The notes beneath the pieces were generated by a model. That model did not search any database. It was not told where the DNA came from and was given only the letters and a program-made list of their open reading frames with translations. Position numbers and translations under genes: made by a program. From a virus (taxonomy: Duplodnaviria; Caudoviricetes), in the IMG/VR virus record IMGVR_UViG_3300028833_000110, positions 1-64,000 of that record: a stretch of 64,000 nucleotides of DNA, one strand, 5' to 3'. Shown here in pieces: positions 13,987-60,434 of this stretch (position 1 is the stretch's first letter; the number at the start of each line of letters is the position of its first letter).

Positions 13987-14538
13987 TTAATATTTTCCAC
14001 TATTTGCTGCGTTTGTTATTTTAGTATTGAGGGCTTTGGCATTCTTTCCATTACCGAAGAGTGCGCTATTCATTGCTTTCGCCTCCTTACTTTGCTGTCC
14101 AAGAAGCTGACTCCTCCAACCTGATTTAGCAGTCATTAGTGTTTTAAAGTCGTTAGAACCAAGCTTACCTCCTTTAGGGGCCGTCTTTTGAATACCTTGA
14201 ACTAATAAATTTGCATCCTTCATTACTTCTTTGCCTTCCCCCTTTAGTGAACTAATAAGACTAGTATTGCCACCTAAGTTAGTCACTCTTTTAGCCATTT
14301 CAGGACCCTGCATATATTGTCCAGCCTTTCTTAATTGGCGAGCAGTTTTTGCAGCTTTATTTCTAACAAACTGATTCCTTAGTGATCCTAGACTGGGAAA
14401 AGCAAATTCTCTCTGGGCATATTCGTATCCTTCACAAAATGCACGTTCCAAGAGTTCATCCAAGTCTTCATTTCCCGTACTATAAAGCTTCTCATCATAG
14501 TACTCATCATAATCACTGTACAATTTAGTTATTTTCAT
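13987..14538 (-). CDS. Acidic-leader/cationic-core protein (LYSTGNxxLDELLERAFCEGYEYAQREF family)
   Basis: About 45-aa conserved leader followed by a unique basic core. Confidence 0.7.
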   Translation of the reverse strand: MKITKLYSDYDEYYDEKLYSTGNEDLDELLERAFCEGYEYAQREFAFPSLGSLRNQFVRNKAAKTARQLRKAGQYMQGPEMAKRVTNLGGNTSLISSLKGEGKEVMKDANLLVQGIQKTAPKGGKLGSNDFKTLMTAKSGWRSQLLGQQSKEAKAMNSALFGNGKNAKALNTKITNAANSGKY

Positions 14539-14550
14539 TATTTATCATTC

Positions 14551-14595
14551 AACATACAGGGAAAATTTAACTTACTACCCCCCCCCCTGTATGTT
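14551..14595 (-). repeat. 5'-leader hairpin element C with poly-G tract
   Basis: aacatacaggg...ccctgtatgtt, 12 nt upstream of the ATG; near-identical copies at 53017 and 57355. Confidence 0.65.
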
Positions 14596-14632
14596 ATTTT
14601 TTTTTATAAAGGGAGAGATAATATTGTTTTAG

Positions 14633-14678
14633 ATCTAGGAATCCACATTGAAGGGTAGACCTAAAGTCATTCCTAGAT
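14633..14678 (-). repeat. Structured intergenic motif B, copy 1 (copy 2 at 15181..15233)
   Basis: atctaggaat...attcctagat stem enclosing conserved atccacat..aagggtagacc.aaagtc. Confidence 0.55.
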
Positions 14679-14684
14679 ATTAGT

Positions 14685-15095
14685 TTAATTATTGCTATTA
14701 TTCTTTTTATTCTTTTTGTGTTTTTTAATAGCAGCCGTAGTACCAACAGCAGCAGCAACAGGGAGAGCAATCATAGCACCTTTACCAGCCATATTGATTC
14801 TTTTGGCTCTTTTGGCATTTTTCTCAACGAGTTCCCTTATCTTATCCAGGTTTTCATATTTTTCGGGATTTTTAGTGACATCCTTCATTGTTCTCTTTAT
14901 GGTTCTTGCACCAACTCGTTCTATGTCACCTAAGGTTTCTCCTCTAAACCAATCTCCAATCTTACCAAACTCTCTTTGTGCATATTCATATCCATCACAA
15001 AAAGCTCTTTCCATCAATTCATCTAATTCATCATTACCAGTACTATATAATCTCTCTTCTTCCTGATAATTACTGTACAATCTTTCTATTTTCAT
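14685..15095 (-). CDS. Acidic-leader/cationic-core protein
   Basis: MKIERLYSNYQEEERLYSTGNDELDELMERAFCDGYEYAQREF leader; C-terminal hydrophobic helix and Lys tail. Confidence 0.7.
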   Translation of the reverse strand: MKIERLYSNYQEEERLYSTGNDELDELMERAFCDGYEYAQREFGKIGDWFRGETLGDIERVGARTIKRTMKDVTKNPEKYENLDKIRELVEKNAKRAKRINMAGKGAMIALPVAAAVGTTAAIKKHKKNKKNNSNN

Positions 15096-15106
15096 TATTT
15101 CTTGTT

Positions 15107-15155
15107 GCTATAGGGAGAAATTGTTTCTTTTATCTTATCACCTCCCCCCTATAGC
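15107..15155 (-). repeat. 5'-leader hairpin element C2 (copy at 60447..60491)
   Basis: gctatagg...cctatagc hairpin just upstream of the ATG. Confidence 0.6.
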
Positions 15156-15239
15156 TCTGTTTTTATAAAGGAGGAATAGTATCTAAGAACCAGAAATCCA
15201 CATCAAAGGGTAGACCCAAAGTCATTCCTAGATATTTTT

Positions 15240-15935
15240 TTATTCACTTTTCTTCTTCTTTCCTGTTTTAGCAGCAATAGTAGCACCAGCAGCAACTACA
15301 GGAGCTGCAGCAGCAGTATATCTTAGGGCTTTACCACCAACCTTAGCACGGTTCAGGGCTTTTTCAGCTGCCTTAGTTGCTTTCTTTGCAGCCTCAATTG
15401 CCTTAGTTGGATCATTCATTGTACCACCTTCAGTAGCAAATTTCATAGCATTATTAGCCTTTTCTAAGTTTTCTTTGGATCTTTTAATACTACGTTGGAA
15501 TGGTTTTTCTGAAGCATCAACTATTTTTCTATAAGCATTTTTTATTTTACTTTCCTGACCCTCTAATTTATCAGCTCTCATTAGAACTTTCTCAGGGTTT
15601 GCCATTGTTCCACCCTCTCCTGCAAAATTAGCTTCATTTCTAGCTTTTTCTGCACGGGATCTCAAAACTTTCTTCCCAAGTTTCTTTCCACCATAAGCGG
15701 CACCTACACCAGCACCTGCACCTACGGTACCACCAATACCAGCTCTAAGTCCTGTACGTCCTTTCTTCTCTTCTTCTTCCTCTTCGGCAAATTCTCTTTG
15801 TGCATATTCATAACCTTCACAAAAAGCTCTTTCCAGAAGTTCATCTAATTCATCATTACCAGTGCTATAAAGTTTTTCCTCTTCATAATCACTTTCGCTG
15901 TAAAATCTTTCAGCAAATTCTCTTCCGTTAATCAT
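15240..15935 (-). CDS. Acidic-leader/cationic-core protein with glycine zipper
   Basis: Same leader; internal duplication FAxEGGTMxxP. Confidence 0.7.
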   Translation of the reverse strand: MINGREFAERFYSESDYEEEKLYSTGNDELDELLERAFCEGYEYAQREFAEEEEEEKKGRTGLRAGIGGTVGAGAGVGAAYGGKKLGKKVLRSRAEKARNEANFAGEGGTMANPEKVLMRADKLEGQESKIKNAYRKIVDASEKPFQRSIKRSKENLEKANNAMKFATEGGTMNDPTKAIEAAKKATKAAEKALNRAKVGGKALRYTAAAAPVVAAGATIAAKTGKKKKSE

Positions 15936-15961
15936 AATTCTCTTATTGTTTATTTTTTTTA

Positions 15962-16414
15962 TTAGGAGGTATATTCTTCTCTCCCATTTGTCATATTATT
16001 AGCCCAATCTTTCTTTTCACGTCTTAGGGCCTGTTTCTTTGCATATCGTAGACGTTCATTGTAGTGGTTTACTTCTTCAACCTCTTTTTGTCGTTTATTA
16101 GTAGCTCCGATAGCAAGAGTACCAGCAGTAAGAGCAGCGGCCAGTTTTATATTTTTCTTTCCACCACGCCTTACTAATTTCTCAGCAATACGTTTAGCTT
16201 CACCCTTTCCAACCCGTTTTGTGATTCTAGCGGCGAGATGACCAACAGCACCACCCGCAGCGCCTGTTATAGCCCCCGCACCAGCAGCACTCACAATCTT
16301 TCCTATTCCCGGTTTTTTCTTTTCTTCTTCAGCCAGGATATCAGAGTCTTTAGCTCTCTTTAGGTTGTCAGTATCATCCCACTTAGTAAAATTCTTAGTT
16401 CTTAGGATTAACAT
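15962..16414 (-). CDS. Leader-bearing glycine-zipper protein (MLILRTKNFT)
   Basis: Paralog of 1273..1791. Confidence 0.65.
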   Translation of the reverse strand: MLILRTKNFTKWDDTDNLKRAKDSDILAEEEKKKPGIGKIVSAAGAGAITGAAGGAVGHLAARITKRVGKGEAKRIAEKLVRRGGKKNIKLAAALTAGTLAIGATNKRQKEVEEVNHYNERLRYAKKQALRREKKDWANNMTNGREEYTS

Positions 16415-16518
16415 GATTTTAATGGGTTATACGTACTATTCTCAGAGTCTAATTCTTGTTTTGAATTTTCTACCCCTTCAGTAAACGTTTTTTCTTTAAT
16501 TTTTTCTTCGTCGTACAT
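16408..16518 (-). CDS. 36-aa small acidic ORF (MYDEEKIKEKTFT...)
   Basis: Read by hand; fills the intergenic gap and contains KTFT. Confidence 0.35.
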   Translation of the reverse strand: MYDEEKIKEKTFTEGVENSKQELDSENSTYNPLKSC

Positions 16519-16526
16519 AATAAAAG

Positions 16527-16850
16527 CTATTTTGGCATAGCTACAGGATCTACACCTTTTGATCTAGTTTTATATAATCCAACGTTTTTAGGAGAATCAT
16601 CAAGGTTCTGCATTTTTTGGGTCTGAAGCATTGCCTTGTTTTCTTGCATATCCTTTTGCATCTCCATTTTCTGTAGTTGTTGGATTCTTTTCATTCTATT
16701 TTTAGCCGCATCTGCCTCTAATTTTTGTTTTGTTCGTTGGTTAATCATGATCTGTCTTTGCATTCTCATATTTTCCAACTGTATATCTCTAGGGGTTAAT
16801 TGCTGTGGTTCTTCTACGGCTGCAAATTTTTTCTGTCGTATTATTTTCAT
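16527..16850 (-). CDS. Leader-bearing Gln/Met-rich coiled-coil protein
   Basis: MKIIRQKKFA. Confidence 0.6.
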   Translation of the reverse strand: MKIIRQKKFAAVEEPQQLTPRDIQLENMRMQRQIMINQRTKQKLEADAAKNRMKRIQQLQKMEMQKDMQENKAMLQTQKMQNLDDSPKNVGLYKTRSKGVDPVAMPK

Positions 16851-16864
16851 TCTATTTTATATTT

Positions 16865-17389
16865 TTAAACAGAACTTTTTTCTTTATATCTGGCTTGTGA
16901 TTCTTTTCTTCTCTTGTCAGTTACCTTTTTCGCATATTTTTCATGCTTCTTTCCTTTAGATTGACCAACAAGAAGTCCCAAAGAAGCTCCACCAGCACCT
17001 GCACCGATTAATGCCCCAACACCTGCTTTTTTGTTTTTCATAGCATTAATACCAGCCCCTAAAGTTCCACCTAAAAGACTTCCGGTTACTCCACCAACTA
17101 TTCTTCCTTCTTTGGTTCCTCGTCTTTTAGAATTTTTTATAATTTTTTCATCGACTCCCTTTTCATCCTCTCGAGTTATGTCATCGAGGTTCATTTTTTC
17201 CATCTCTGCTTTTGATACGTCTGGATACAATACATTATCATCGTGATATGCTCTTAATGGAGTTCTTTTCTCACGATCTGCTTCTTCCGTATCATATTTT
17301 CTTTGGTTAGGAGATAGTCTATTTTTCTTATATCTATCCCATATAGGAGTCTTTGATTCTGAATAGGTTTTCTGTCTTAGGATTTTCAT
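16865..17389 (-). CDS. Leader-bearing glycine-zipper protein
   Basis: MKILRQKTYS; GGVTGSLLGGTLGAG. Confidence 0.65.
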   Translation of the reverse strand: MKILRQKTYSESKTPIWDRYKKNRLSPNQRKYDTEEADREKRTPLRAYHDDNVLYPDVSKAEMEKMNLDDITREDEKGVDEKIIKNSKRRGTKEGRIVGGVTGSLLGGTLGAGINAMKNKKAGVGALIGAGAGGASLGLLVGQSKGKKHEKYAKKVTDKRRKESQARYKEKSSV

Positions 17390-19116
17390 ATACCAAGCCC
17401 TCCATTCTTTTGTTCTGGGGTTTGCTGCTGAAGAATAGACGGATCAATACCAAGTTGTTCAAGCTGACTATTAACTTTAGCTTTGGCAACTTGTATATAT
17501 TGTTGTAGAGTCTCTTCATTTATCAGATTCTCGGTATTTGGGTCTATGTCTTTAAGCAGATTATGTACGTAAGTTAAGTATGCCTCAGGATCTATTAGAG
17601 GAGAAGCAAGATCTAATGTTTGGAGTGAAGTTTGTATTATATTTGAAATTCCTTGTACCAAACCATTAATACTCTCACTTTGATTAATCTGATTATTATA
17701 CTCTACACTAGTCTTTTCTGATATATGTAATTTAATGAGACTTGGATCTAATTCTTTTCCATATAAAGTTGAATATATAGAACAAACCAAATTAGTTACT
17801 GAATCTTTTATACCAGCCATAAAAGCAGCGACTCTAGAATTGGCTCGTTCTGATTGTTGGAGAACCTGCCATTTCGAGCCAGAAGTTGAGTCGATAATAG
17901 TGGCTGGAAGACCTAAAGGATTTAATACATTACTTTTACATTGATCTAAGGTTTGCATTATTTCCAGAAGTTTATCACTTAACTTATCTAGGGGAAGCAT
18001 ACTATTTTTTCCGCCAAGTGTTGAGTTATAGTCTGGAATAAATTTAGCTGATTGTGTGAGAGTGTTTTCTATGAAACTTACAACATCAAATTGAGATGTT
18101 AAGAAAGAACTAATCTCATTTGTATTATTAGCTAGTTTTGTAGCTCTAGCACACAATTCATTAGCAGTTTCGAGGGGCACTGATTTATCGAATTGTAAGA
18201 GGAATAATTGAACGGAAGTAAGATCACGTAAAGAAATAAGAGAAACTAATAACTCTTTAATCACTAATTCCTTTACTTTTATAATCAAACTATAAAATAA
18301 CGGTTCTGATGCCATATATGACTCTTTTCTCGTTACTTTCTCCCGTGTTCCTTTCTGTCCTTTTCCATCTTTTGGTCTTTCTAACCACTTCTTATTTTTA
18401 TCTTTCCAATCCGGTGAGAGATCATTTACTAGACGAAGATTAGAAGAAGCTAAGTAAATCATTTCTTTCTTTGGGATTTCATAAATTACATTATCTTCTC
18501 CTCTAGCTAAAAATACTTCTTCCGTCTCCATATCTTCTTCTCCCCGCTTTCTCTTAATTACTACAGATAGTGGGTCAAATAATTCTTCTATTCTAAATCT
18601 ATAGTGTCCTAGCTCATCCTTCGTTGATCTAAGCATGCTATAATAACCACCATAAAAGACATAATCCTGTACATGATCTCGTATAAAATCAAATACTTTT
18701 ATATCCTTAACTAAAACATCATTAATTCTCTGTGTCCTCGTTTCATCTTTATTTCCCTCTTCATCTAAAATTGTAACTAGTTGAGCTCCATTAGAATCAT
18801 CAGCTAAAAAATTTATTATATAATCTGCAAAAAAATTAGTCGCAAGTTTTGAGATATCTAAAAGCTGATAACCCTTTAGCTCTGACATCTTTTCATAATA
18901 AGAGGATAGTCTAGAGGAAGGCATATAATTTCCTAATAGCGGTGACTTTCTATCCATATTATCAAAAATTCTGGATTGAGTTGTGCCACCTATAGGAAAA
19001 TATCCGGATGTACCATTAGAACCATAAACATTAGACCTTAGTGCAAAACGTCCTGATCCTAAAGCGAATGACCCGAATATTTTTTGTACTAGGGTTTCGT
19101 TGTTTTCTCTTTTCAT
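17386..19116 (-). CDS. Portal protein (putative)
   Basis: 576 aa; first gene of the head operon; helical, with DYVFYGGYY and LGLP motifs typical of portals. Confidence 0.6.
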   Translation of the reverse strand: MKRENNETLVQKIFGSFALGSGRFALRSNVYGSNGTSGYFPIGGTTQSRIFDNMDRKSPLLGNYMPSSRLSSYYEKMSELKGYQLLDISKLATNFFADYIINFLADDSNGAQLVTILDEEGNKDETRTQRINDVLVKDIKVFDFIRDHVQDYVFYGGYYSMLRSTKDELGHYRFRIEELFDPLSVVIKRKRGEEDMETEEVFLARGEDNVIYEIPKKEMIYLASSNLRLVNDLSPDWKDKNKKWLERPKDGKGQKGTREKVTRKESYMASEPLFYSLIIKVKELVIKELLVSLISLRDLTSVQLFLLQFDKSVPLETANELCARATKLANNTNEISSFLTSQFDVVSFIENTLTQSAKFIPDYNSTLGGKNSMLPLDKLSDKLLEIMQTLDQCKSNVLNPLGLPATIIDSTSGSKWQVLQQSERANSRVAAFMAGIKDSVTNLVCSIYSTLYGKELDPSLIKLHISEKTSVEYNNQINQSESINGLVQGISNIIQTSLQTLDLASPLIDPEAYLTYVHNLLKDIDPNTENLINEETLQQYIQVAKAKVNSQLEQLGIDPSILQQQTPEQKNGGLGI

Positions 19117-29277: not shown

Positions 29278-29360
29278 GCTCTGGTGATGGAATGGTAGAC
29301 ATGAGGGACTTAAAATCCCTTGCCTGTAAAGGCGTGTGGGTTCAACTCCCACCCAGAGTA
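29278..29360 (+). tRNA. tRNA-Leu(TAA)
   Basis: gctctgg/ccagagt acceptor; aggga-ct-TAA-aa-tccct; long variable arm; GTTCAA T-loop. Confidence 0.92.
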
Positions 29361-29371
29361 CTTTTATATAG

Positions 29372-29400
29372 AATACTACTTTAATAGTAGTATTTTTTTT
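29372..29400 (+). terminator. Intrinsic terminator after tRNA-Leu
   Basis: aatactact-ttaat-agtagtatt plus T-run. Confidence 0.65.
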
Positions 29401-29951
29401 ATTTCCTTATATATGTTATGAAAAAATTAATGAAATTTGTAATTAATACTTGGAATGGTATACCAGAAAATTTAAAAGATTCCAACGATGGAAAAAACTG
29501 GTGGGTAACTCAAATTCATTTTCTGCCATTCATTATGTATCAATTATGTGATGAACATAAAATAATCTTTGGATGGTTGTTTTGGTCTGTATCAATAAGG
29601 TGGCCTCGTAAACAAGATTAAAAGTAATGAGTAATATGAAATTTTCAGAAGGGGATAAAATAGTTCTTAAATCAACACGGGAAGAATTTCAGGTTCTTAG
29701 TATTGAGGAAGATTGGCTATTTGGAAGATGTACTGGGTATAAATATGTTTTATTGAATAAATATGGAAAAACCCTGGCATATGAACAACTTTATGCTGAG
29801 AGAATATTTGAATCCTCCACAAACAATTCAAATGCAATGGTTGGGGAAAAAGAATATGATTTCACTGATTTGTTAATTGGATATTCTATTTAGGGTTGTT
29901 TTCTTTTCGCCTCTTTTCCTTATAATTGAATAAAAAAAACATTAATAAAAA

Positions 29952-32069
29952 ATGAAAAGTATATCACCAAAAATTCAGGCACAGTTTGATAAAATGTGTG
30001 CAACAGGTAAATTATTTCAAAGTAGTATCTCAGGGCATGAATTAGCGGATACATATTTGCTCGGTTTTATCTCGGATCCTGTTTTTAGAGATCCTGAGAG
30101 TTCTGTGCATAATTGTAATTCCTGCAAAAACTTCATACATCGCTATGGTACTATTTTGGCCATTGATTCTGACCTTAACATCATGACTTTGTTTGATATT
30201 CCTGATATTGATGAGGAATATAAAGAGTCATTTAGATTAATGTCAGAAGAGCTTAAAGAGGCTCCTATCAAGGGAGTCTTTGTTGAGACCTATGACAACC
30301 TCTCTCATGAATTATGTTATGAGAGGCCTATAAAGAAAGATCAAGAGAAATACTGGTTAGGACTTCAGAAGAATGTGAAGTGCTATACAGAAGAAGAGGC
30401 TAAGAAATTTGGTGTAGTAAAGCCAAATGAAATCAGAGAGTTTTATCATCTCTCGGTTCAGATTCCTCGACAGTTCATAGATTTCAGTGGAAGCAGTGTA
30501 GAAGCATTACGCGGAAGACACTATGACAACTTCACAGTCTTTCGTAGAACCATGGAAGAAATACCGATTGATACAGTTCTTCTAGTGAGGGACCTTATTA
30601 ACCAAGGATCTCTTCTCGACGGGGATGCACACCTTCATAAGGTTGAGGGTATTCTCCCTATGCTAACTGAATATCAGAAAGTACCGGTAGATAAGCGAGA
30701 AATCTGGTGTTGGGTAAAGTCTGTCGGATTTAAGTATGCCAAGTTTAAGAACGAGCTTATTGGTAAGTTATGTACTGAGTTGGCCGAAGGGAGGGAATTG
30801 AATGAAGCATGTCAAGACTGGAACTTTAGAGTTGATCCGGCTAATTATATGAAAGCCACTGCCCCGATCACTAAAAAACAGATTGAGGAGGCTAAGAAGT
30901 TTGTTGAAGAAAATGGTTATGAGGCATCTTTTTCTCGGAGATGTGCTACTATCGAGGACATCAAAGCTTCGGACATTCTTCACATCAACTCTGGAGATGG
31001 CGCTATTAAAAAAGTGTCTATTTTTGATGACGTGAAGCCAACCCACACTCGCCATAAAAGAAGCGAATTTGATAAGGTTGAGACAGTTGGAATAGAGAAG
31101 TTTATGTCTGATATTCTTCCGACTTGTACTTCGGTCGAGGTATTTCTTCTCAACCAGCACAAGAGAAATATGGTAACTCTTACAACTTCAGAGGATCCAG
31201 ATAGTAAACCAATTTTCAAGTGGCCGAACAATTACTCTTGGACATACGCCGGAAATCTCGCTGGCAAATCTCAAATTAAGGAGGCTGTAAAGGCTGCTGG
31301 TGGTGTCGTAGATGCCCCATTCCGCTTCTCGATAATGTGGAATGAGGATGGTAGGGATATTGTAGATCTTGACGCCCACTGTATAGAAGACGGGGGAGGA
31401 AAAAATCATTATGAGATCTATTTCGGAAACAAAACACGGCTTAGTCCACAAGGAGGAACTTTGGATGTAGATATGATTCGGCCGAAAACAAATGGAGTAG
31501 AAAATATCTACTATAAATCTATACCAACGAATGGGTCGTTTAAGTTCTTCATTCAGAATTATGACGGTGGGAAACATAAGGATTGCCGAGCAGAACTGTA
31601 TATAAATGGTAGTAGCTATAGTTACTACATTGACCATAAAATTGGCGATAACGAAACCATTGCCATTGTGACTATTAATGATGGTGTGGTGAACATAGAA
31701 CAATCTCGATATCTCACCGATAGTAACGAAATGAGCACTGAGATTTATGGTCTAGAGACGAATCAGTTCCACAAAGTAAATCTTATTTGCCTTTCTCCTA
31801 ATCATTGGGAAGGAAAGGTAGGAAATAAGCATTACTTCTTCATGTTGGAGGGTTGTAAGTCTCCGACACAAATACGAGGTTTTCATAACGAGAATTTGAT
31901 CCCGGAATTATTTGCTCACCGAAAAGTCATGGAGGTTTTAGCAAATACCACGATGGTAGAGTCAACAGATGGACAATTATCGGGCCTTGGGTTTGATGCC
32001 ACTGTTCGAGATGAGTTGATTGTGAGACTTAAAGGATCACACAGTAGAGTATTAAAGATTCAATTTTAA
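29952..32069 (+). CDS. Conserved phage protein with YfaP/DUF2135-like C-terminal domain
   Basis: SIMWN...DLDAH...GGTLDVD...VENIY motif; HNCNSC; higher GC than neighbours. Confidence 0.55.
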   Translation: MKSISPKIQAQFDKMCATGKLFQSSISGHELADTYLLGFISDPVFRDPESSVHNCNSCKNFIHRYGTILAIDSDLNIMTLFDIPDIDEEYKESFRLMSEELKEAPIKGVFVETYDNLSHELCYERPIKKDQEKYWLGLQKNVKCYTEEEAKKFGVVKPNEIREFYHLSVQIPRQFIDFSGSSVEALRGRHYDNFTVFRRTMEEIPIDTVLLVRDLINQGSLLDGDAHLHKVEGILPMLTEYQKVPVDKREIWCWVKSVGFKYAKFKNELIGKLCTELAEGRELNEACQDWNFRVDPANYMKATAPITKKQIEEAKKFVEENGYEASFSRRCATIEDIKASDILHINSGDGAIKKVSIFDDVKPTHTRHKRSEFDKVETVGIEKFMSDILPTCTSVEVFLLNQHKRNMVTLTTSEDPDSKPIFKWPNNYSWTYAGNLAGKSQIKEAVKAAGGVVDAPFRFSIMWNEDGRDIVDLDAHCIEDGGGKNHYEIYFGNKTRLSPQGGTLDVDMIRPKTNGVENIYYKSIPTNGSFKFFIQNYDGGKHKDCRAELYINGSSYSYYIDHKIGDNETIAIVTINDGVVNIEQSRYLTDSNEMSTEIYGLETNQFHKVNLICLSPNHWEGKVGNKHYFFMLEGCKSPTQIRGFHNENLIPELFAHRKVMEVLANTTMVESTDGQLSGLGFDATVRDELIVRLKGSHSRVLKIQF

Positions 32070-32085
32070 CCAAAAAAATAATATT

Positions 32086-32472
32086 ATGTACAAAAAAGCT
32101 GCACGTTTAAAATTAAGATTTGATACCCCTAAGGGTGCACTCTCAGTCGAACAACTCTTCGACTTGACTATGACAGAATTATCTTCCCTGATTAAGAAGA
32201 CTAATGCCATTGTAAAAAAAGAAAAGTCGGCTGCTGAGGATGACGACCTGGCATTCCTCGAAGGCAAGGATAATGTGGAATCCTTGAACTCCCTCAGATT
32301 TGGAATTCTGAAGGATATATATCTAACCAAGAAACAAGAGAGGGATGATGCCGCAATCGATCTGGACAAGAAGCAAAAAAGACAACGAATTGCAGAGATC
32401 ATTCAGAAGAAAGAGAATGAAGCATTAGAGAACCTGTCAATCGAAGAGCTTAAGAAAAAGCTAGAAGAATAA
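32086..32472 (+). CDS. Coiled-coil partner protein (A.RLKLRF...G.LSVEQLFDL)
   Basis: Directly follows the 705-aa gene; terminator at about 32491-32530. Confidence 0.55.
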   Translation: MYKKAARLKLRFDTPKGALSVEQLFDLTMTELSSLIKKTNAIVKKEKSAAEDDDLAFLEGKDNVESLNSLRFGILKDIYLTKKQERDDAAIDLDKKQKRQRIAEIIQKKENEALENLSIEELKKKLEE

Positions 32473-32871
32473 GGAGAGGTTCTTTAGACAATATTAGAGA
32501 GAAATTAAATCTCTCTAATATTTTTTTTTGCTCTTTTCCTTATATATGACGTTAATTAAAAATAAAACACTAAATAAAAGAAATTCATATGGAGGATATA
32601 CAGATATTAGAAAAATTAAAACGAATATATGAAAGTTCTGACACTTCTGTACGAAAGAAACTTGAAAAAGAATTTCCTAATTTTTTTTAGTGATAATAGG
32701 GAGTGGAGTATTAATGACGTAAGAACCTGGAAGTATATTATTAGTGATGTATTAACTTATGAGTCTGGTATTGGACAGTATCTTGATACATCTGAGGAAT
32801 TAGCTATTCTTCTTAAGAATAAGTGGTCCAAAAGAATTTCTACTAATAAGATTGTGTCTTAGGAAGCATTT

Positions 32872-33306
32872 ATGGAAAAATATTTTATAGCATATTCTAC
32901 CAATATTTGCATTAATTTTGAGGAATTACCTCTTATTGTAGGAGAGTTTAGTTCAATAAATGATGCTAAATCATTTATTGCTGACTGTGGTAGTAATATG
33001 ATGCGCAATCCGGCTATTTTTAGTACTCCTGATAATTTAATGGAGGAGGAATTAACTTGGGAGTATGTATATGCTCACTTATCCTGTGAAGATTTATGTA
33101 AAAGCTGTAGTCACTACTATCGTCGTGATGTGGCAGTATACTATGAAGCACACTGTGATATACTAGATAGAATGGGAAAATTGTTATCACAATCCGCTGT
33201 TCCATATCCTTGTTTAAAATGCCCATTTGATAGTTATATTCCGAAGACAAACTTGAAAGAAATAAAATATCAAGATAATTTTTTTGGAGGATCGTGGGTT
33301 TTTTAA
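32872..33306 (+). CDS. Cys-rich hypothetical protein
   Basis: Paralog of 34405..34773 (EDLCKSC..H...HC...PCLKCPFDSY). Confidence 0.6.
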   Translation: MEKYFIAYSTNICINFEELPLIVGEFSSINDAKSFIADCGSNMMRNPAIFSTPDNLMEEELTWEYVYAHLSCEDLCKSCSHYYRRDVAVYYEAHCDILDRMGKLLSQSAVPYPCLKCPFDSYIPKTNLKEIKYQDNFFGGSWVF

Positions 33307-33336
33307 TGAAAAACATAATTAATAAGATTTAATAAA

Positions 33337-33864
33337 ATGACAAAAGAAGAAAAATCATTATTAAATATTGTACTTCTAGAATTATTACCTTATAATACTA
33401 AGGTTGCAATAGATTTTAAAGAGTACCTAGAGTGGTTACCTAATGAACCATACAAAGAGAAACTAGAGTTTTGCCTTAAATACAAAGGAAAAACCATAGA
33501 AGATATATCAAAGGAGCCCCATATATTATATTCATATCCGTGTGAAGGGAGATTTGGAATGCTTTGGGGATATGAAAACGATGAATATGGGGTACCGGTA
33601 GAGTTTATTAGACCATACCTTCGTTCAGTATCTTCAATGACTGATAAAGAAATGTGCAAATTATTTGATATCCTTAAGATAGATAAAGACGGTAATGATG
33701 AAGATTGGATAAAAATAAATGATGCTTTAGGTATTGAGTTTTTCTTTCCTACTGGAAGATGGGTTGAGGATGTAATAGAGGCATATGATTACCTTAATTC
33801 AATTCATATTAACTATAGGGGCCTTAAACTAGCTTTAGAGGCTCCAAAAGATATGTATAAATAA
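33337..33864 (+). CDS. Hypothetical protein, PYLRP family
   Basis: LLPY...RPYLRSVSSMT...NYRGL.LALEAPKDMY. Confidence 0.6.
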   Translation: MTKEEKSLLNIVLLELLPYNTKVAIDFKEYLEWLPNEPYKEKLEFCLKYKGKTIEDISKEPHILYSYPCEGRFGMLWGYENDEYGVPVEFIRPYLRSVSSMTDKEMCKLFDILKIDKDGNDEDWIKINDALGIEFFFPTGRWVEDVIEAYDYLNSIHINYRGLKLALEAPKDMYK

Positions 33865-33868
33865 AAAA

Positions 33869-34315
33869 ATGATAGAAGAAAAGAAACAGGCCTTAATAAA
33901 AGTTCTTTATTCGGATTTACTAAATACTGACAATCACCTATTAGTTCGATGGGATTCTGAGGATTATAATATTATTGCAATTGGTTGTGGCCGAGTAAGT
34001 TTAGTTAAACCATTTATGTCGGGTACAAACGGTTCTCCACAGATTGAGGAGGTCAAACCTTACCTTCGACCACTATCATATATGACAGAGAAAGAGGAGG
34101 AGGAACTTGGTAAAAAATACAACTTTAATATTAATTCTGATAGTATTTCCATTAAGTATCATAGTGATGGGTGTTGGGATGATGATTGTCAACCTGGATT
34201 TGAAGATTACCGGTGGCTAGAAACCTGGTTAATTATTCATAAATTCGATTACTTGGGTTTAATTAAAGATGGATTGGCATTAGTGGCTAAAAAAGGAATG
34301 TATAAATTTAATTAA
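33869..34315 (+). CDS. Hypothetical protein, PYLRP family
   Basis: KPYLRPLSYMT...FDYLGLI..GLAL. Confidence 0.6.
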   Translation: MIEEKKQALIKVLYSDLLNTDNHLLVRWDSEDYNIIAIGCGRVSLVKPFMSGTNGSPQIEEVKPYLRPLSYMTEKEEEELGKKYNFNINSDSISIKYHSDGCWDDDCQPGFEDYRWLETWLIIHKFDYLGLIKDGLALVAKKGMYKFN

Positions 34316-34404
34316 TCCATGCAATTAGTTAGTATAGTTCTTATAATATTATTTATTGGAGGACTTTCTAGTTATTTTTATATAATTAATAAGATTAAGA
34401 AAAA

Positions 34405-34773
34405 ATGAAATATTTTATAGCATATAACAATGATGGTAAGGATTTTCAAGAATTACCTTGGATTGAGGGATCTTTTGACTCGGTAGATGATGTTAATTCA
34501 TTTTATATGTGTGACGGTAATAAGATGAACGATCCGGTTATTTTTAGTACCCCTGACATAATAGAGGAGCAAATAACATGGGATTATGTGCGTGAACATA
34601 TGCCTGAGGATTTATGCAAGAGCTGCATTCATTTTTGGGAGGATTTTCCAATGCCATTAGATCATTTTGAACCTCACTGTGAAATATTGGATAGAAAAGG
34701 GAAATTATTAACAAAGGATAACGTTCCTTTTCCATGTTTAAAATGTCCATTTGATAGTTATAAGAAAAATTAA
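34405..34773 (+). CDS. Cys-rich hypothetical protein
   Basis: Paralog of 32872. Confidence 0.6.
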   Translation: MKYFIAYNNDGKDFQELPWIEGSFDSVDDVNSFYMCDGNKMNDPVIFSTPDIIEEQITWDYVREHMPEDLCKSCIHFWEDFPMPLDHFEPHCEILDRKGKLLTKDNVPFPCLKCPFDSYKKN

Positions 34774-34778
34774 TTAAT

Positions 34779-35324: not shown

Positions 35325-35337
35325 TATAAAAAAAACA

Positions 35338-35784: not shown

Positions 35785-35816
35785 AACTAAATTAAATATT
35801 TAATTAGAAATAATAT

Positions 35817-35890
35817 CGCGGGGTGGACAGGAGAGGCTCCTGCTCGGTCTCATAAGCCGAATGACGCTGGTTCGAATCCAGCCCCCGCTA
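35817..35890 (+). tRNA. tRNA-Met(CAT), initiator-like
   Basis: cgcgggg acceptor with C1:U72 mismatch; tcggt-ct-CAT-aa-gccga; GTTCGAATC. Confidence 0.85.
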
Positions 35891-53174: not shown

Positions 53175-55368
53175 TTAGAACAGATTATTTAACATGCCCT
53201 GGAATATTTTTTGGGTTTCTTCTAGGGCGGATGATGTTTGAGAGGAGAATGATTGAATAGTTTTGCTTACTCCACCATTCATTCCTAGTTCTTGATATTT
53301 AGAATAGTGATAGTAGCAATTGAAGAGAGCACCAGAAACAGCATCAGCAAGGTCTTTACTCCCCTCTAGCTTATTCCCTTCCATTCCCGCATGATCAAAC
53401 TCATAACAACTTGAAACTAAGGGGTGATCTATTTTACAATGCTCTCCGTTAACTCCATTATAAGTCACTAATAGCTCACTACATTCTCGTAAAAGTATGT
53501 TGATATAAGGAAGCTCTAATCTTTCTGAATTTACTATATTCTTAAAGACGTTATAAGCCTCCATAGTTTTATCTACGGAAAGGGGTCTGTAGGGAATTCC
53601 ATCTCTTTCAGCATTTTGTAAGATTCCGGCACTAGCAAAAGAGTCAGCACTAAACTCGACGATATATCCATTTTTCACTAAGTCTTGTAAAAATTGATAG
53701 AGGTGGTCTAGTGATGTAGCCTGTCCCTTCTTTCTGGAAACAACAAATGCTAATGGAACTTTGAATTTGGGAAGTGTATATTCTCCTACTTGTTTTTCCC
53801 CATCATAATAACATAAAGCTATCCCAGTTTTATCCTTCTTCAATCCTATATCATAATGTACATATAGTGAAGTGCCTCGTGGAATTCTGTAGATCATATT
53901 TTCGACATGAGAATATATACTATCTTCCTTATCATAAAAATCGACTATAATTTCCTCGGGACTGTAATTCTTTAGGGTTGAGCAGTTTATGAGATGAGAT
54001 ATATTACCGTTGAAGAATCTCTCATCGCCGCTATAAGATACTCCCGCTAAGTCTCTAAGATTTCGGATTGGGTCGGCCAGGAATTTAAATTTGGCAGAGA
54101 TGGGAACATTAATCACTCTGTCAGGATCTAATCCAGATTTCTCCAGATCTTCGGAGTCTTCGATCACGCGGGGACCTGTAATATTATCTCCTTTATAGAA
54201 CCTAAAAGTCTTACCATTAGACTCAAGGTATAGTGGATCATAACGTATATCCCATTGTGCAAATCTACAGCGGTATAATTCCTCTGGGGGAACGAGAGAT
54301 TCAAACTTAGTAACAGCAATATTATCCGGGTCCCTCGCTGAGCTGTCACAAACTACATGTCCATAAACAAATCTTTTATCAGCAAAACGAGAATCATAAC
54401 GAGTCACAACTTCTGAAGCTCGAGCAGCCCCCTCCGAGGACCTCCAGAAGCCCAGCTCTGATAAACAGGCATATATCAAATTTCTTATTTTATAATAATT
54501 TTTTATTATATTAGACTATATCTTGTATTAAAACAGTATATACATAGTCTTTGAACTACTTTAAATTAAAGTAGCTGCTGATTTAATATATTAATTATTT
54601 CCAGCAATTCTTATACTATGAGCAAACTTTTTACTCCGATGACATGACTCCCGCTAGAAGGACCCGAGGGGATAAAACGAATGGGTGGTTTATGATAAGG
54701 ACTTCTAAAATAAGGACTTGTATCAAACACTAAGTCAACATAATTTTTGAAGTCTCTTTTGGCAGTCTCGAAAGAATTGTGAAAGAAAGCCATTCCTAGT
54801 TTACTGTTCGCAATCCCAAGAGACTTAAATACATTTGTACAGCAATCCAATCTATGGTAAGTATAGAGTGCTAGGATCTTACTGATAGTTGATTTTCCAA
54901 GTCCACAGTTTTATAATATTTCTATTATGATAAGACTATATCTTCTTTCGTATATACACATAGTCGTTGAATAAGATACATAATTATCTTACTGCTAGTT
55001 TAAATCGGAATTTGTTTCTAGCAATTCTTATATAGGCCGCTGGACTTTCTGTTAACGGCACCCCCAAGAGAAATCCAGGGGTATTTTGTAGTAATTGAAT
55101 TTGGATAAATCTTTTCTAATTCAGCATACCATGGATCAAATAATGCTTTTCCATGATTAAATAAGTTATCATCTCCCATAAAATAATCATCACATATAAA
55201 TCTTCTTATAGTCACTGGTTTATGATCCATCCCCAGTAATTTACACGCTGCTAATATTTTCTCCTCATTAGAAAGTTTATTATATTCAGATTCAAGTATG
55301 TTTTGGTTTATATCTGATGAAATAGAAAGAGTAGGATCATCACCTATATTTATATTACTGTTTTTCAT
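53175..55368 (-). CDS. terL: Terminase large subunit, three exons (55368-55055, 54905-54633, 54483-53175; 631 aa spliced)
   Basis: Splicing restores Walker A GGAVGLGKST and Walker B-like LIYACLSE; nuclease motifs HYDIGLKKDKTG and SKDLADA. Confidence 0.85.
54484..54632 (-). mobile_element. Miniature group I intron 2 (149 nt)
   Basis: Exon GAGU pairs with IGS GCUC; P10 AAGUUU/AAAUUU; P AAUUGCUGGAAA, Q AAUCAGCAG, R UUCAAAGACUA, S AAGAUAUAGUC; terminal G. Confidence 0.88.
54906..55054 (-). mobile_element. Miniature group I intron 1 (149 nt)
   Basis: Exon GCCGU pairs with IGS GCGGC; P10 AAGUCCA/UGGACUU; P AAUUGCUAGAAA, Q AACUAGCAG, R UUCAACGACUA, S AAGAUAUAGUC; P9 GAAA loop; terminal G. Confidence 0.9.
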
Positions 55369-56662
55369 ATTCTTCTACTTTTTTAGGTTCTATTATGGGA
55401 ATGATGGAGCTAATGTCTTCCCCATATATCAATATCTTTTGTATTATGTCGAAAATATCATTAAATTCTTTTATATTGTATGGTATAACGATTAATTTTA
55501 TCGATTTCCTCTCACAATACTCTTTTATAGCATCGTCTCGTAATAATTGTTTAGAATAGTCTTCAATAGACCTTTGAAAGTCGTGATCCCAGAAATAATG
55601 TTGAGATCCATTATATTCAATTATATAAGTAGATCCTTTATAGTTTTCTAAGTAAAAATCAACATAAACCCTTTTTTGAACATTAACTAATTCAAACATT
55701 TCCTCACTATCAATCCGAAACTGAGGTGTATATTCAATTCCTAAATTATCTAATACATGAGCTACATGTTTCTCTCCTCTAGACTTAACTCGATCGAAGT
55801 TAAATATGCCTCGTAATAAATTTCCTGCTGGTACAGAGTATTCCTTACCTGTTCTACGATCTATTACTATTACATTAGTATCTCTTCCAACACGACTATT
55901 GGATCTTAAATAAACCGCCTTTGATAAATCTATTATATCTCCGTAAATTTCCCTAACCCTTTCTTCAAACTCTTCTTGCGATATAGCATTCTGTCTTCCT
56001 ACGGATAATCTAGCACAATTTGGGCATTGTCCAGTTCCATAATAATGCTCTCCGGGCATCTGTTCAAAAAACTCTCCACAAGTAAGACACTGAAGACGTA
56101 CTTTAGTATGATTATTAACATACTTTGTTTCACTATATCCAAATCTACCTGGAAACTTCTCCTTTGATCTTCTTATGAATTCTTCAGTGTCTACATATTG
56201 TTCTGTTTTTTCTTTAGATAACATTCCCGCACATTGCCTGTTTTCATCTAATACTACTACAAGATCATGATAACTTGTTTCCCACTCTCCTATTACTTTA
56301 TTTGTTTTAGTAGATACCTCATCTACATAAATAGGTACATTAGTCTTTTTGTTTCTTATAATATCTGGAACATTACTGAAGTCATAATTAAAAATTCTTT
56401 TATTCTCAATTTCCCTAGAGTTATAATATCCTTCTATAAAATCCTCTTTCAGGATTATACCTTTTCCAATAGACCATCTTAATCCATCTTCTTTTATGTG
56501 TTTGAGAACAAATTGTTTAGTATGTCTGTGTTTATCAGTGGCATTAGAAAACCACCTTAATCTCTTCTCTACTCTCTCCACACTAACTCCTAATTCTTTA
56601 GCTACACCTTCGACCGTGTACTTTTCTTCAAATGGAAATTCTTCTCTTTTACCGTTTTGCAT
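55355..56662 (-). CDS. Free-standing homing endonuclease-like protein, paralog of 12355..13662
   Basis: FIRRSKEKF..RFGYS..KY...CLTC...CPNC; SRGE...DFYL...IEYNGSQHY...RD. Confidence 0.75.
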   Translation of the reverse strand: MQNGKREEFPFEEKYTVEGVAKELGVSVERVEKRLRWFSNATDKHRHTKQFVLKHIKEDGLRWSIGKGIILKEDFIEGYYNSREIENKRIFNYDFSNVPDIIRNKKTNVPIYVDEVSTKTNKVIGEWETSYHDLVVVLDENRQCAGMLSKEKTEQYVDTEEFIRRSKEKFPGRFGYSETKYVNNHTKVRLQCLTCGEFFEQMPGEHYYGTGQCPNCARLSVGRQNAISQEEFEERVREIYGDIIDLSKAVYLRSNSRVGRDTNVIVIDRRTGKEYSVPAGNLLRGIFNFDRVKSRGEKHVAHVLDNLGIEYTPQFRIDSEEMFELVNVQKRVYVDFYLENYKGSTYIIEYNGSQHYFWDHDFQRSIEDYSKQLLRDDAIKEYCERKSIKLIVIPYNIKEFNDIFDIIQKILIYGEDISSIIPIIEPKKVEEYEKQ

Positions 56663-58010: not shown

Positions 58011-58315
58011 AGCTTTAATTTTTTAGTTTGTCTCTTTATCATCTCTTCTTCCTGCCGGTTGAAGGTGTCTGTATTCGCTAGTCTTTGTTCTGGAGTTAGT
58101 TTTTCTGTATTCTTTCCTGCCCCTAATATATTAACTCTTGCCTTTCCCACATTTTTAGCTCTTCTCGCCTGTCTTCTTCTTTTTCTTTCTATCTTTCCCT
58201 CAAGAGCATCAGTAACCCTAGCTCGTTCAAGATCGCTTAATTCACTTCCCTTTTTATGAATAAACCTGGAAATAGCTTCATGATAAGAGTAATTATTTTG
58301 TCTCAGTATTTTCAT
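58007..58315 (-). CDS. Leader-bearing Arg-rich protein
   Basis: MKILRQNNYS. Confidence 0.6.
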   Translation of the reverse strand: MKILRQNNYSYHEAISRFIHKKGSELSDLERARVTDALEGKIERKRRRQARRAKNVGKARVNILGAGKNTEKLTPEQRLANTDTFNRQEEEMIKRQTKKLKL

Positions 58316-58742
58316 TATCTCTACTCCTTCTTTTTTTCTTAGTTATTTTATCGTAAGCTATTCCTCCAGCTGTGGCTCCAATAACAGTAGCTGGTAAAAT
58401 AAACTTTGATCTATGTTTAAGAACTGCGTTTTTTCCAGCCTCTTTACTTTTACTTATTGCCTCTTTTTCATACATTTTTTTCAGTTGTTCTACTTGAGAA
58501 ATTGAATCTTTATCTGTTAACTCTTGTGCCAACCCTATATTTTTTTTTATTCGTTCTAGTCTATCGTTTAAATCTTTATTGTAGTTCTTATTAAATACTT
58601 CATCTTTTCCTTTCTCAGATAAAGCATAACCACCAACAGCACCAATTCCAGCACCGACAGCCGAAGAACTAGCTATTCCAATTTTATTAGCTAGACCCTT
58701 CTTTTCTTTTTTCTGCTCTTGTTCTTTTCTCTTTATTTTCAT
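58293..58742 (-). CDS. Glycine-zipper protein
   Basis: MKIKRK; AVGAGIGAVGG and VIGATAGG. Confidence 0.6.
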   Translation of the reverse strand: MKIKRKEQEQKKEKKGLANKIGIASSSAVGAGIGAVGGYALSEKGKDEVFNKNYNKDLNDRLERIKKNIGLAQELTDKDSISQVEQLKKMYEKEAISKSKEAGKNAVLKHRSKFILPATVIGATAGGIAYDKITKKKRRSRDNENTETK

Positions 58743-59056
58743 TTTTTTAATATTAATCTGTCTCCTGTAATTCCTTTGTAGTCCTTTGGTATATTTTCTT
58801 CTCCACCAAAAATAGAATAAGCATTAGTTCCTTTACTAATCTTTTCTCCTCCCCCATGATCTCCAAGTGTTAAACCTGGAAAATCTGGATCTATACCCTC
58901 CGAACTATCTAAGAATTCATCATGTATCTTTTTAAGCTGATTTAAAGTACTAAGTGTATATCCTTCTATATTATCAGCTTTTACGAACTTATTTAAATAA
59001 AATTTTAGATCCATCAATTGGGCAATTGTTATAGAGGTCTCGAAAAAAGTCGACAA
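58739..59056 (-). CDS. Possible baseplate hub assembly partner (T4 gp51-like position)
   Basis: Directly follows the gp26-like gene; positional inference. Confidence 0.35.
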   Translation of the reverse strand: MSTFFETSITIAQLMDLKFYLNKFVKADNIEGYTLSTLNQLKKIHDEFLDSSEGIDPDFPGLTLGDHGGGEKISKGTNAYSIFGGEENIPKDYKGITGDRLILKK

Positions 59057-59738
59057 TGAGATTTTCTACACTCACTGCCACTAACCCCCTTTCTCCCTTC
59101 TCTATACATCCTGGACAAGTTAATTCAAGGGGTTCTAGTCTATCATAGTAAATATCACGAAGAGCCATAAGAAGGGTTATATCTTCGTGAACAGCCCCTA
59201 ATACATCCTGCTCAATCTGGTTTCCATCAAGATCAAAATTCTTCATCAATGCTATAGTTTTGATCATTTTAAGGTCTGTAATTTTTCTATATTTTAAGTA
59301 TTTTTCAAAGACCTTAAGAAAATCAGAAACCGTAGGAATAGTGACATCATATTTATGCCCCGACAACTCTATAACAGCCCCATTCATTATTTTATCATCA
59401 ATTTGCTTAAAATGTATGTCGGTTTCTAGATTAATTTTCTTTCTTATCTTAGTACCACATTCAGGACAAGTTATGGAAAGATCATAAGTTAGGTCCCCGG
59501 AAACAGTACAAAGCTTCTTATAAAAAATTAAGAAGTCAACATCCATTACATAACAGTTAAGAACATTTTTATCTTCCTTAATTAATAATTTTATATCAAA
59601 TAAGTATTTTTCTAGGGGATCTTTGGGTACATTCTCTAGGTATTGTGTTAGCTCTAAAAACGTCATAGGGCTAACAGATAAAGAGGGAAAATCATAACCA
59701 TATCCCCCACTAGGTAATTGCGAAGTTAATACTATCAT
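58989..59738 (-). CDS. Baseplate hub assembly protein (T4 gp26-like)
   Basis: LPSGG..Y...PMT..E...D.DFL...CPECG...PTV.D...CPGC pattern. Confidence 0.6.
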   Translation of the reverse strand: MIVLTSQLPSGGYGYDFPSLSVSPMTFLELTQYLENVPKDPLEKYLFDIKLLIKEDKNVLNCYVMDVDFLIFYKKLCTVSGDLTYDLSITCPECGTKIRKKINLETDIHFKQIDDKIMNGAVIELSGHKYDVTIPTVSDFLKVFEKYLKYRKITDLKMIKTIALMKNFDLDGNQIEQDVLGAVHEDITLLMALRDIYYDRLEPLELTCPGCIEKGERGLVAVSVENLIVDFFRDLYNNCPIDGSKILFK

Positions 59739-59767
59739 ATTTTTATTCCATTTTTAAGTTATATTAG

Positions 59768-59812
59768 TTCCCAGAGTGTAATTGAATACTACCTCAGTTT
59801 AGGCTCTGGGAA
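59768..59812 (-). ncRNA. Three-way-junction motif A, copy 4
   Basis: UUCCCAGAG-CCU..AGG-UAGUAUUCAAUUACA-CUCUGGGAA. Confidence 0.6.
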
Positions 59813-59825
59813 ATTATAGGGTTAT

Positions 59826-60434
59826 TTATTTCTTTTTACCATATTTTTTAGCATACTCTTCTTCAGACATATCACCCTCAACAACTTTAATCATGTCTCT
59901 ATTCTTTTCAAATCTCTTAGCTGCCTTTGAGTTGGGATGTTTCTCTACATGGTTGCTCTCAAGATGAGCAATACCACCCCCAAGTCCAGCGGCTCCGGCA
60001 CCTATAGCAGTACCAATAGCGGCTGACTTCAATCGGCTATTACTAGGGAATCTTGTCACACCTCCATAAAGCCCCAATGTAGCAGCACTAGCGGGAAGGT
60101 GACGTTTCATTTGTTCGTTGATCCCTTCTTTTCTCACATCAGGATCCTCACTATTACGTTTTTTATAAGAATCGTAGGTAAAATATCCAGTGTGTCCTTT
60201 TTGATGTGATTTATCCCAAGATTTGATTTCCTGTCTATCTCCCCATTTTACTCCCAACTCCTTAAGTCTTTTATCTCTTTCTTTTCTCCTTTTCCTATCT
60301 TCTTTACCAAACTCCTTTTGTGCATATTCATAGCCATCACAAAAAGCTCTTTCAAGTAATTCATCTAATTCATCATTACCAGTACTATATAATCTTTCTT
60401 CCTGATAATTACTGTATAATCTTTCTATTTTCAT
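59826..60434 (-). CDS. Acidic-leader/cationic-core protein with glycine zipper
   Basis: Leader nearly identical to that of 14685..15095, including the upstream DNA. Confidence 0.7.
   Translation of the reverse strand: MKIERLYSNYQEERLYSTGNDELDELLERAFCDGYEYAQKEFGKEDRKRRKERDKRLKELGVKWGDRQEIKSWDKSHQKGHTGYFTYDSYKKRNSEDPDVRKEGINEQMKRHLPASAATLGLYGGVTRFPSNSRLKSAAIGTAIGAGAAGLGGGIAHLESNHVEKHPNSKAAKRFEKNRDMIKVVEGDMSEEEYAKKYGKKK

Follow-up and report, generated by a model that had tools for sequence, protein, structure and literature searches.

Acidic-leader genes and the conservation of their leader

We analysed a 64,000-nucleotide stretch of DNA (hereafter the window) comprising bases 1-64000 of the 95.8-kb IMG/VR record IMGVR_UViG_3300028833_000110, which derives from an uncultured T4-like giant phage of the ruminant gut; the record is partial, with a CheckV completeness of 24%. 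The subject of the analysis is a group of small genes that begin with a shared acidic leader and continue into diverse basic cores. By a six-frame motif search together with a listing of the open reading frames (ORFs), we found an acidic segment ending in (R/K)EF on five minus-strand ORFs of the window, and a sixth copy of the leader outside it, at 67198-67662 of the record. The five ORFs are as follows (lengths in amino acids, aa; charges are net charges).

15240-15935, minus strand: acidic-leader gene 1 of the interval between the candidate portal and protease genes, 231 aa; leader 15789-15935 (49 aa, variant MINGREFAERFYSE...); core of 182 aa, charge +18, with Gly/Ala-rich stretches
14685-15095, minus strand: acidic-leader gene 2 of the same interval, 136 aa; leader 14967-15095 (43 aa); core of 93 aa, charge +13, ending in a transmembrane-like stretch and a Lys-rich tail
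13987-14538, minus strand: acidic-leader gene 3 of the same interval, 183 aa; leader 14404-14538 (45 aa, variant MKITKLYSDYDEYYDEK...REF); basic core 13987-14403 (138 aa, charge +18)
59826-60434, minus strand: baseplate-adjacent acidic-leader gene, 202 aa; leader 60309-60434 (42 aa); core of 160 aa, charge +14
1273-1791, minus strand: short-leader gene; leader of 25 aa, 1717-1791, ending in KEF

The first-pass annotation of this DNA had reported that the leader is nearly verbatim in the four ORFs starting at 13987, 14685, 15240 and 59826, that its tail is present in a fifth at 1273, and that similarity stops at the REF/KEF site. All three observations held. The ORF listing and our alignment agree that the four share, at residues ~15-49, the sequence ...LYSTGN(D/E)(E/D)LDEL(L/M)ERAFC(D/E)GYEYAQ(R/K)EF; ORF 1273-1791 bears the last 16 residues of the leader within its 25-residue N-terminal segment; and no protein alignment extends past the EF, where the likeness of the DNA ends too. 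The leader is laid out in three parts, namely a short N-terminal tag like MKILRxKxF, an acidic spacer ending in (K/R)LY↓S (here and below the arrow marks a candidate cut) and a near-invariant 22-residue acidic amphipathic helix that ends in (R/K)EF and is followed by A, G, S, T or N. In an AlphaFold2 (AF2) model of ORF 14685-15095 made with 10 homologues (predicted local distance difference test score, pLDDT, 76.6; predicted template modelling score 0.60), residues 1-21 are disordered and residues 22-43 form a helix, which matches the conserved acidic block and has F43 as its last residue. Next come a loop and two further helices, the last of which includes the conserved transmembrane-like stretch ahead of the Lys-rich tail.

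A profile built from six leaders was run on 90%-identity and 50%-identity protein collections, where it matched 565 proteins and 329 cluster representatives from metagenomes, respectively, 178 of the latter at E ≤ 1e-10. The position of the leader in the 329 representatives is always N-terminal, within the first ~95 residues. Nearly all of the 150 representatives listed have it inside the first ~55 residues, and one of the two in which it lies further in (to residue 94) likely has a mis-called start. Leader-bearing contigs are up to 399 kb long, and sequencing runs from sheep, bovine and goat gut contain the stretch. A search of IMG/VR with the leader returned 6 loci only, blastn of 13900-16500 against a phage collection gave no match, and neither PHROGs nor Pfam assigned a family to any leader gene.

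Among 17 copies of the leader taken from this genome and from relatives, the proportion of synonymous differences (pS) was 0.61 and that of nonsynonymous differences (pN) was 0.07, giving a pN/pS of 0.115. The synonymous sites have diverged and the amino acids have been retained, so that the leader peptide itself is under purifying selection. Over all pairs, the last 28 leader residues are 88.5% identical on average, and leader identity is still 91% where core identity is 20-40%. In a survey of 131 cluster representatives, each with a core of at least 40 residues, the residue after the leader site was A (63), G (39), S (14), N (8), T (5), D (1) or V (1), and the median net charge of the leader was -8 (-3 to -10 in the window genes). 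The substitution pattern bears directly on the suggestion that gene conversion maintains the similarity of the segment, or that the segment acts as an expression signal at the level of the mRNA, and that it has no function as a peptide: although an upstream hairpin and the leader DNA are indeed duplicated together at 90% identity, as described below, conservation of the peptide over diverged synonymous sites leaves this suggestion scarcely credible.

A candidate cutting motif shared with head proteins

The motif [KR]-x-[FY]-[SATG] was observed 122 times in the called proteins compared to 78 ± 9 times in shuffled sequences, and the excess falls mainly on head proteins, where the sites are invariant in homologues; enrichment is 10- to 25-fold in the scaffold-like and core proteins and ~5-fold in the protease linker. 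The proteins concerned are listed below.

6494-7960, minus strand: Gp23-like major capsid protein; motif sites after residues 37 and 60 (KMF↓S, KTF↓S), that is, 2 sites within the first 61 residues
7983-10196, minus strand: scaffold-like protein, 737 aa, net charge -182; 15 motif sites of the form [KR]x[FY][SA] observed, 0.6 expected, with the sites conserved in four homologues
10215-10982: protein of 255 aa; 7 motif sites observed, 0.7 expected
10984-12297, minus strand: prohead protease candidate, residues 1-197 having the T4 gp21/assemblin fold; 5 motif sites observed in its disordered linker, 0.9 expected

Each acidic leader contains 3-4 such sites, which fall within its first 8 residues (MKI.R.Y↓S), ahead of the conserved block ((K/R)LY↓S) and at the end of conservation ((R/K)EF↓A/G). 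Since the leader ends at a motif that saturates the scaffold-like protein, the protease linker and the N-terminus of the capsid protein, the prohead protease of the phage is the likely processing enzyme for the leader, as far as the distribution of sites can indicate. A comparable pattern of sites is left by proteolytic head maturation in T4 and in SPN3US (PMC9026906, PMC10052503), with the difference that the residue before the putative cut is aromatic here. Within the acidic-leader cores the motif is depleted (24 observed compared to 56 ± 7), whereas a control motif is not, and we regard this as moderate support for cleavage. Such depletion had been expected in all proteins that carry either the leader or the short tag described below, and was found in the acidic-leader cores only.

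The assignment of the head proteins relies on folds and features. Against Gp23 clusters, ORF 6494-7960 had a feature score of 0.97-0.99, and its predicted structure had a template modelling score of 0.83 to a cluster with Gp23 in 22% of its members. Ser141 and His89 are invariant in ORF 10984-12297, whose model (24 homologues) had a mean pLDDT of 72, with a confident N-terminal domain (residues 1-197) for which the top three Foldseek matches were T4 gp21 (5JBL). VIA gave 5JBL with a Z of 12.7 and a root-mean-square deviation of 2.3 Å over 128 residues, followed only by herpesvirus assemblins at Z 7-10, and the Atlas features placed the protein in Peptidase_S77/S80 clusters (0.91). The genome therefore contains both a gp21-type protease and a Gp23-type capsid protein, at the level of fold and features only; phmmer searches of PDB sequences with the two proteins gave no match, and most structural genes stay without a name in PHROGs, Pfam and PDB sequence searches. 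Residues 198-285 of the protease form a disordered linker with five conserved [KR]x[FY][ST] sites, behind which lies a basic helical C-terminal domain (residues 286-426; isoelectric point, pI, 9.3) that may be the enzyme's own targeting domain for the acidic scaffold. A net charge of -182 fits a scaffold, and the 737-aa protein is probably an unusually large polyanionic one; it has internal repeats ~96 residues apart. We also considered whether the leader is a copy of this scaffold repeat and dropped the idea (hmmsearch E 0.48, hhalign probability 0.4%).

In the direction of the genes, the head module runs from a 576-aa candidate portal protein through three short-tag genes and the three acidic-leader genes to an HNH/DUF723 endonuclease, the protease, the 255-aa protein, the 737-aa protein and the capsid protein. 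This order resembles that of T4 genes 20-67-68-21-22-23 (T4 core composition, PMC9026906), the acidic-leader trio standing where T4 has genes 67 and 68, provided that the 576-aa gene encodes the portal. The module is common to the window and two relatives at 79-97% DNA identity, one being a 97.6-kb IMG/VR contig (loci L011 and L012) and the other a 286-kb contig from ENA (L015). Elsewhere in the record, the HNH/DUF723 homing-endonuclease-like gene that adjoins the protease (12355-13662, minus strand) has a paralogue that adjoins the terminase (55355-56662, minus strand), and the terminase region itself is broken up into several ORFs (53175-55368). The plus-strand gene block contains, at 29278-37287 of the window, eight genes for tRNAs (Leu, Met, Ser, Gln, Cys, Pro, Glu and Asn), and a ClpB-like double AAA+ chaperone gene (AAA_2, E 2e-38; ClpB_D2-small) lies on the plus strand at 79411-82023 of the record (15411-18023 of locus L018).

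Basic cores, short tags and cassette exchange

The cores had been described as Lys/Arg-rich, unrelated to one another and hypervariable. The first part is borne out fully: window cores have net charges of +12 to +18 and pI values of 9.9-10.7, and in the survey 97.7% of the 131 cores have a pI above 9, with a median charge of +13. The second stands with a qualification, as the window cores fall into separate BLAST clusters except that those of 14685 and 59826 are joined, by single-linkage chaining only. Comparison across phages upheld the third in part. The 131 cores form 81 BLAST families, 67 of them singletons, and in 78 of the 81 the median pI is above 9; however, many cores have orthologs in other phages, and because of this the cores are, judged by sequence, a large shuffled pool and not random hypervariable sequence. 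Core length has a median of 117 residues (5th-95th percentile 58-210). About half of the 131 cores show a glycine-zipper-like pattern, 51 have an uncharged stretch of at least 13 residues, and 22 end in a C-terminal transmembrane-like stretch with a Lys-rich tail.

Approximately 27 other genes begin with the tag MKILRxKx(F/Y)↓(S/T/A), nine residues long up to the arrow; this second, shorter class of leader has the same candidate motif at its end. These short-tag genes span 235-63803 of the window and 63807-68578 of the record and include Zn-peptidase-like and glycine-zipper proteins. One of them links the two kinds of N-terminus.

15962-16414, minus strand: short-tag paralogue of the 1273 core, in which the tag MLILRTKNF replaces the acidic leader

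The core of ORF 1273-1791, whose short leader form is kept in a relative (L012 7998-8516), is a paralogue of that of ORF 15962-16414, and in both genes the tag passes into the core at an identical F↓T junction. Including this pair, four core families carry either the acidic leader or the MKILRxKxF tag, joined exactly at the F; in three of the four the two tags are found in different phages, joined at the aromatic residue. More generally, 10 of the 12 core families with at least three members occur behind more than one N-terminal leader variant. Prp-processed N-terminal extensions of the L27-like kind are mimicked by phage 80alpha, and we considered a Prp/L27-type extension as a possible reading of the short tag; the 95.8-kb record, which is ~24% complete, contains no match to the Prp cysteine protease family (PF04327).

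The charges of leader and core raise the question of whether the helix is, as the first-pass annotation proposed, mainly a built-in neutraliser, acting as a pro-region antitoxin of membrane-active or nucleic-acid-binding cores, while the short tag alone provides targeting. In line with this, 78 of the 81 leader-core families are basic, with a median of +13 set against -8 for the leader, cores found behind the short tag only are less basic (median +7; 67% above pI 9), and each leader begins with the short-tag-like MKI.R.Y↓S. Conversely, the core of ORF 15962-16414 is equally basic (+14) with the short tag alone, ORF 1273-1791 retains the helix without the short N-terminal tag, and the near-invariant sequence goes beyond what masking of charge would need. 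We consider a predominantly neutralising role quite unlikely.

The first-pass annotation had also likened these genes to bacteriocin or RiPP (ribosomally synthesized and post-translationally modified peptide) precursors, in which a dedicated maturase or transporter would read the leader and the core would be exported as an antimicrobial peptide. The layout is indeed that of class II bacteriocins and RiPPs, in that a conserved acidic helical leader is followed, after a putative cleavage site, by a cationic core that varies and in some cases has glycine-zipper stretches. Furthermore, the short-tag ORF 62365-63030 has a sub-threshold Bacteriocin_IIc match and there is a weak radical-SAM-like ORF at 73003-73992 of the record. 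The former, however, is explained by Gly-zipper composition, and no leader gene lies within 5 kb of the latter, which is absent from the relatives' loci. The leader has no double-glycine site, the cores are far longer than bacteriocin or RiPP cores, and the genes around are those of a phage head. No C39/ABC transporter or maturase was found within 10 kb at five loci (L013-L017) by Pfam on called genes, and no window gene matched such Pfam or PADLOC-type families. The head and baseplate context, the length of the cores and the lack of partner genes within 10 kb all tell against the analogy, which we judge very improbable. CxxxCxxC-type motifs are present in two ORFs of the record, 73003-73992 (9003-9992 of locus L018, minus strand; sub-threshold Radical_SAM) and 75882-76802 (plus strand), neither of which adjoins a leader gene.

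A further claim, that the DNA upstream of the leader genes is duplicated and that a recombining cassette places new cores behind a fixed module, agrees with our comparisons. The segments 14962-15182 and 60304-60518 are 90.1% identical over 222 nt (E 2e-83), comprising leader coding DNA and 87 nt upstream, and the 87 nt form a stable hairpin. The elements that flank the cassettes are as follows.

60435-60500, minus strand: upstream hairpin with stem CTATAGG... and a G-run, ending ~12 nt ahead of the ATG of 59826-60434
15096-15165 and 14539-14610 (covarying stem), and ahead of the gene at 67198-67662 of the record: copies of the upstream hairpin
15170-15240, minus strand: post-stop conserved element at the 3' edge of a cassette, with a second copy at 14625-14690
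13915-13990, minus strand: post-stop hairpin with an invariant GTAGTATTCGATTACAC core and covarying stems, a 3' cassette flank
59770-59826 and 13695-13740, minus strand: copies of the post-stop hairpin with GTAGTATTCGATTACAC

Fold z-scores of the upstream hairpin were -5.7, -6.1 and -4.2. Elements of the 15170-15240 type are 87-93% identical in L011 and L015 and fold weakly (z -1.5 to -1.9). An Rfam scan returned tRNAs only, and the hairpins fit no described family.

Between these conserved 5' and 3' flanks the core is swapped in L011, L015 and a third relative, L017, the breakpoints falling on the final codon of the leader and immediately beyond the core stop codon (2 loci, 3 relatives), while the head and baseplate genes that flank the swapped cores are 85-97% identical in close relatives. 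In the third cassette, which contains gene 3, homology to L011 covers the hairpin and leader (14624-14400, 89%), is absent over the core and returns at 13994-13685 (97%). The pattern in L015 is like that in L011, the breakpoints lying at 14400-14403 and 13994-13996, and although the window, L011 and L015 have the same leader variant at this position, they have three unrelated cores. The baseplate locus matches L017 over 60528-60307 at 80%, has no match in the core and matches again from 59812 at 87%. At the second head-module position the core families differ between the window and two relatives, whereas the first position is conserved: in both L011 and L015, gene 1 has a counterpart at the same place whose core belongs to the same family. 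The exchange of cores is probably brought about by homologous recombination in the flanks. In L017 the baseplate-side acidic-leader gene is broken into two ORFs (3140-3367 and 3664-3924), for which a frameshift, decay of the cassette or a faulty assembly could account.

Other ruminant gut contigs, from both DNA and RNA libraries, match the leader and diverge at 14403 or at 14955-14962; one diverging RNA-library contig runs in frame into a P0020-like core. RNA-library contigs from two studies that match parts of the genes exactly were set aside as evidence of expression, as contigs cannot show transcription. Two apparent joints were likewise discarded: that from 16382 to 14404 (run X4; in-frame REF-TRWDD) is probably an orthologue of ORF 1273-1791 aligned over two paralogous parts, not independent evidence, and that from 15857 to 15077 may have arisen through chimeric assembly of the repeated leaders.

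Interpretation of the leader and comparison with known systems

We favour the interpretation that the leader is a cleavable pro-region targeting exchangeable basic internal (probably ejected) proteins to the head, and is thereby a longer analogue of the T4 capsid-targeting sequence (CTS); we put its probability at about 0.58. As we infer it from the sequences, the pro-region would bring the precursor into a prohead core built on the extremely acidic scaffold, the gp21-like prohead protease would cut at [KR]-x-[FY]↓, and the basic core so freed would be packaged and stay with the DNA. The acidic helix, which is absent from T4's 10-residue tag, would most likely dock on a conserved prohead component, and it may additionally offset the charge of the polycationic cargo ahead of assembly. 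A specific binding partner is suggested because 88.5% identity exceeds the needs of charge masking, and masking alongside docking is possible.

Several results weigh against this interpretation. The proposed specificity of the protease derives from motif statistics, and the bodies of short-tag proteins show no motif depletion (20 compared to 17.6) while ordinary genes have ~0.75 of the expected number. In sequence the leader does not resemble the T4 CTS, and its likeness to the scaffold is not significant. No sequence-level match to the Peptidase_S77 profile was found in the record, the protease included, and phmmer of the 576-aa portal candidate against PDB sequences gave no match. Finally, about one-sixth of the cores end in a transmembrane-like anchor, as would suit proteins of the cell membrane outside the capsid.

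This last point leads to the main rival, in which the helix is a permanent docking module that is never cut and equips small membrane or cytoplasmic proteins, acting in the infected cell, to bind one conserved partner; such proteins might, for instance, organise the assembly site or serve in superinfection exclusion or lysis control. We hold this to be unlikely. The very strong conservation (88.5%; pN/pS 0.115) fits a specific binding surface, the 22 of 131 cores with a transmembrane-like end and Lys-rich tail and the 51 of 131 with a long uncharged stretch fit membrane proteins, and the AF2 leader helix is of moderate confidence within a helical protein. Nevertheless, conservation ends exactly at a motif that is ~25-fold over-represented in the scaffold-like protein, the genes are located in the head and baseplate modules, and if the helix did the work it would be hard to explain why the same cores are also found behind a tag of only 9 residues, with the junction at the same F.

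A bolder version of the pro-region interpretation, which we advance tentatively and regard as doubtful, is that loading uses two signals, a short address and a helix that both docks and masks the cargo, before a gp21 protease with an aromatic residue ahead of its cut removes the pro-region and 80 or more core families are delivered with the DNA. Recombination-prone flanks would let a lineage draw on this pool of basic families, the delivered cargo, in part membrane-anchoring, might for example counter host defences or open the envelope, and the freed 26-residue acidic peptide may itself function.

If the leader is indeed a cleavable pro-region for head cargo, it would extend the capsid-targeting principle of T4 by a much longer and structured tag, the protease would have a novel specificity, for an aromatic residue ahead of its cut, and the exchangeable cargo, in abundant uncultured giant phages of the ruminant gut, would be far larger than that of the T-even ip loci. 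The leader would also suggest itself as a portable tag by which foreign proteins could be brought into these capsids. In addition, the leader profile would offer a simple means of compiling candidate injected proteins, among which anti-defence or envelope-active functions are likely to be represented.

The closest known system is that of the internal proteins of T4, which have diverse basic mature parts and a common CTS removed by gp21; in T-even phages, CTS-bearing internal proteins comprise IPI, IPII, IPIII and the products of polymorphic ip loci (PMC3012670, PMC9026906, PMC12373910). As in T4, a conserved N-terminal tag is found here on otherwise unrelated, mostly basic small proteins of a phage whose head is of the Gp23/gp21 type, the end of the tag coincides with the (here candidate) motif of the phage's gp21-type protease, and the mature parts are diverse and differ between close relatives, with cores replaced at two loci. 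Unlike the T4 CTS of 10 residues (MKTYQEFIAE-type; consensus from PMC9026906), the present leader has 42-50 residues and includes a near-invariant acidic helix between two sites; its boundary lacks L/I-x-E, after which T4 is cut, the putative cut here following the aromatic residue of [KR]-x-[FY]. The pool of cargo is also much larger than in T4 (329 clusters at 50% identity), and many of its cores have a C-terminal transmembrane-like anchor.

A second parallel is the phiKZ-like phage SPN3US, in which N-terminal propeptides of ejection and inner-body proteins such as gp53 and gp54 are removed by the S80 protease gp245 at A-X-E; the propeptides are fragmented and the protease undergoes self-cleavage (PMC10052503). 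Both are giant phages in which many head proteins have multi-site N-terminal propeptides, processing here being deduced from sequence. The SPN3US propeptides differ in having 111-254 residues and in belonging to paralogue families in place of one shared leader, and the cutting motif and capsid lineage differ too.

With respect to exchange, the cassettes recall the promoter-early stem-loops (PeSL) that mediate modular shuffling in T4-type phages (PMC2839356, PMC4122927). Here, too, a conserved intergenic G-run/C-run stem-loop (z -4.2 to -6.1), kept in relatives, lies ~12 nt ahead of the start codon and flanks variable ORFs, and the replacements that set close relatives apart fall at these elements. 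In contrast to PeSL, which lie in early hyperplastic regions, the genes described here are in late structural modules, and the conserved 5' module reaches into the coding leader, such that recombination yields an in-frame fusion of tag and core; the precise breakpoints indicate that a coding leader can double as a recombination linker.

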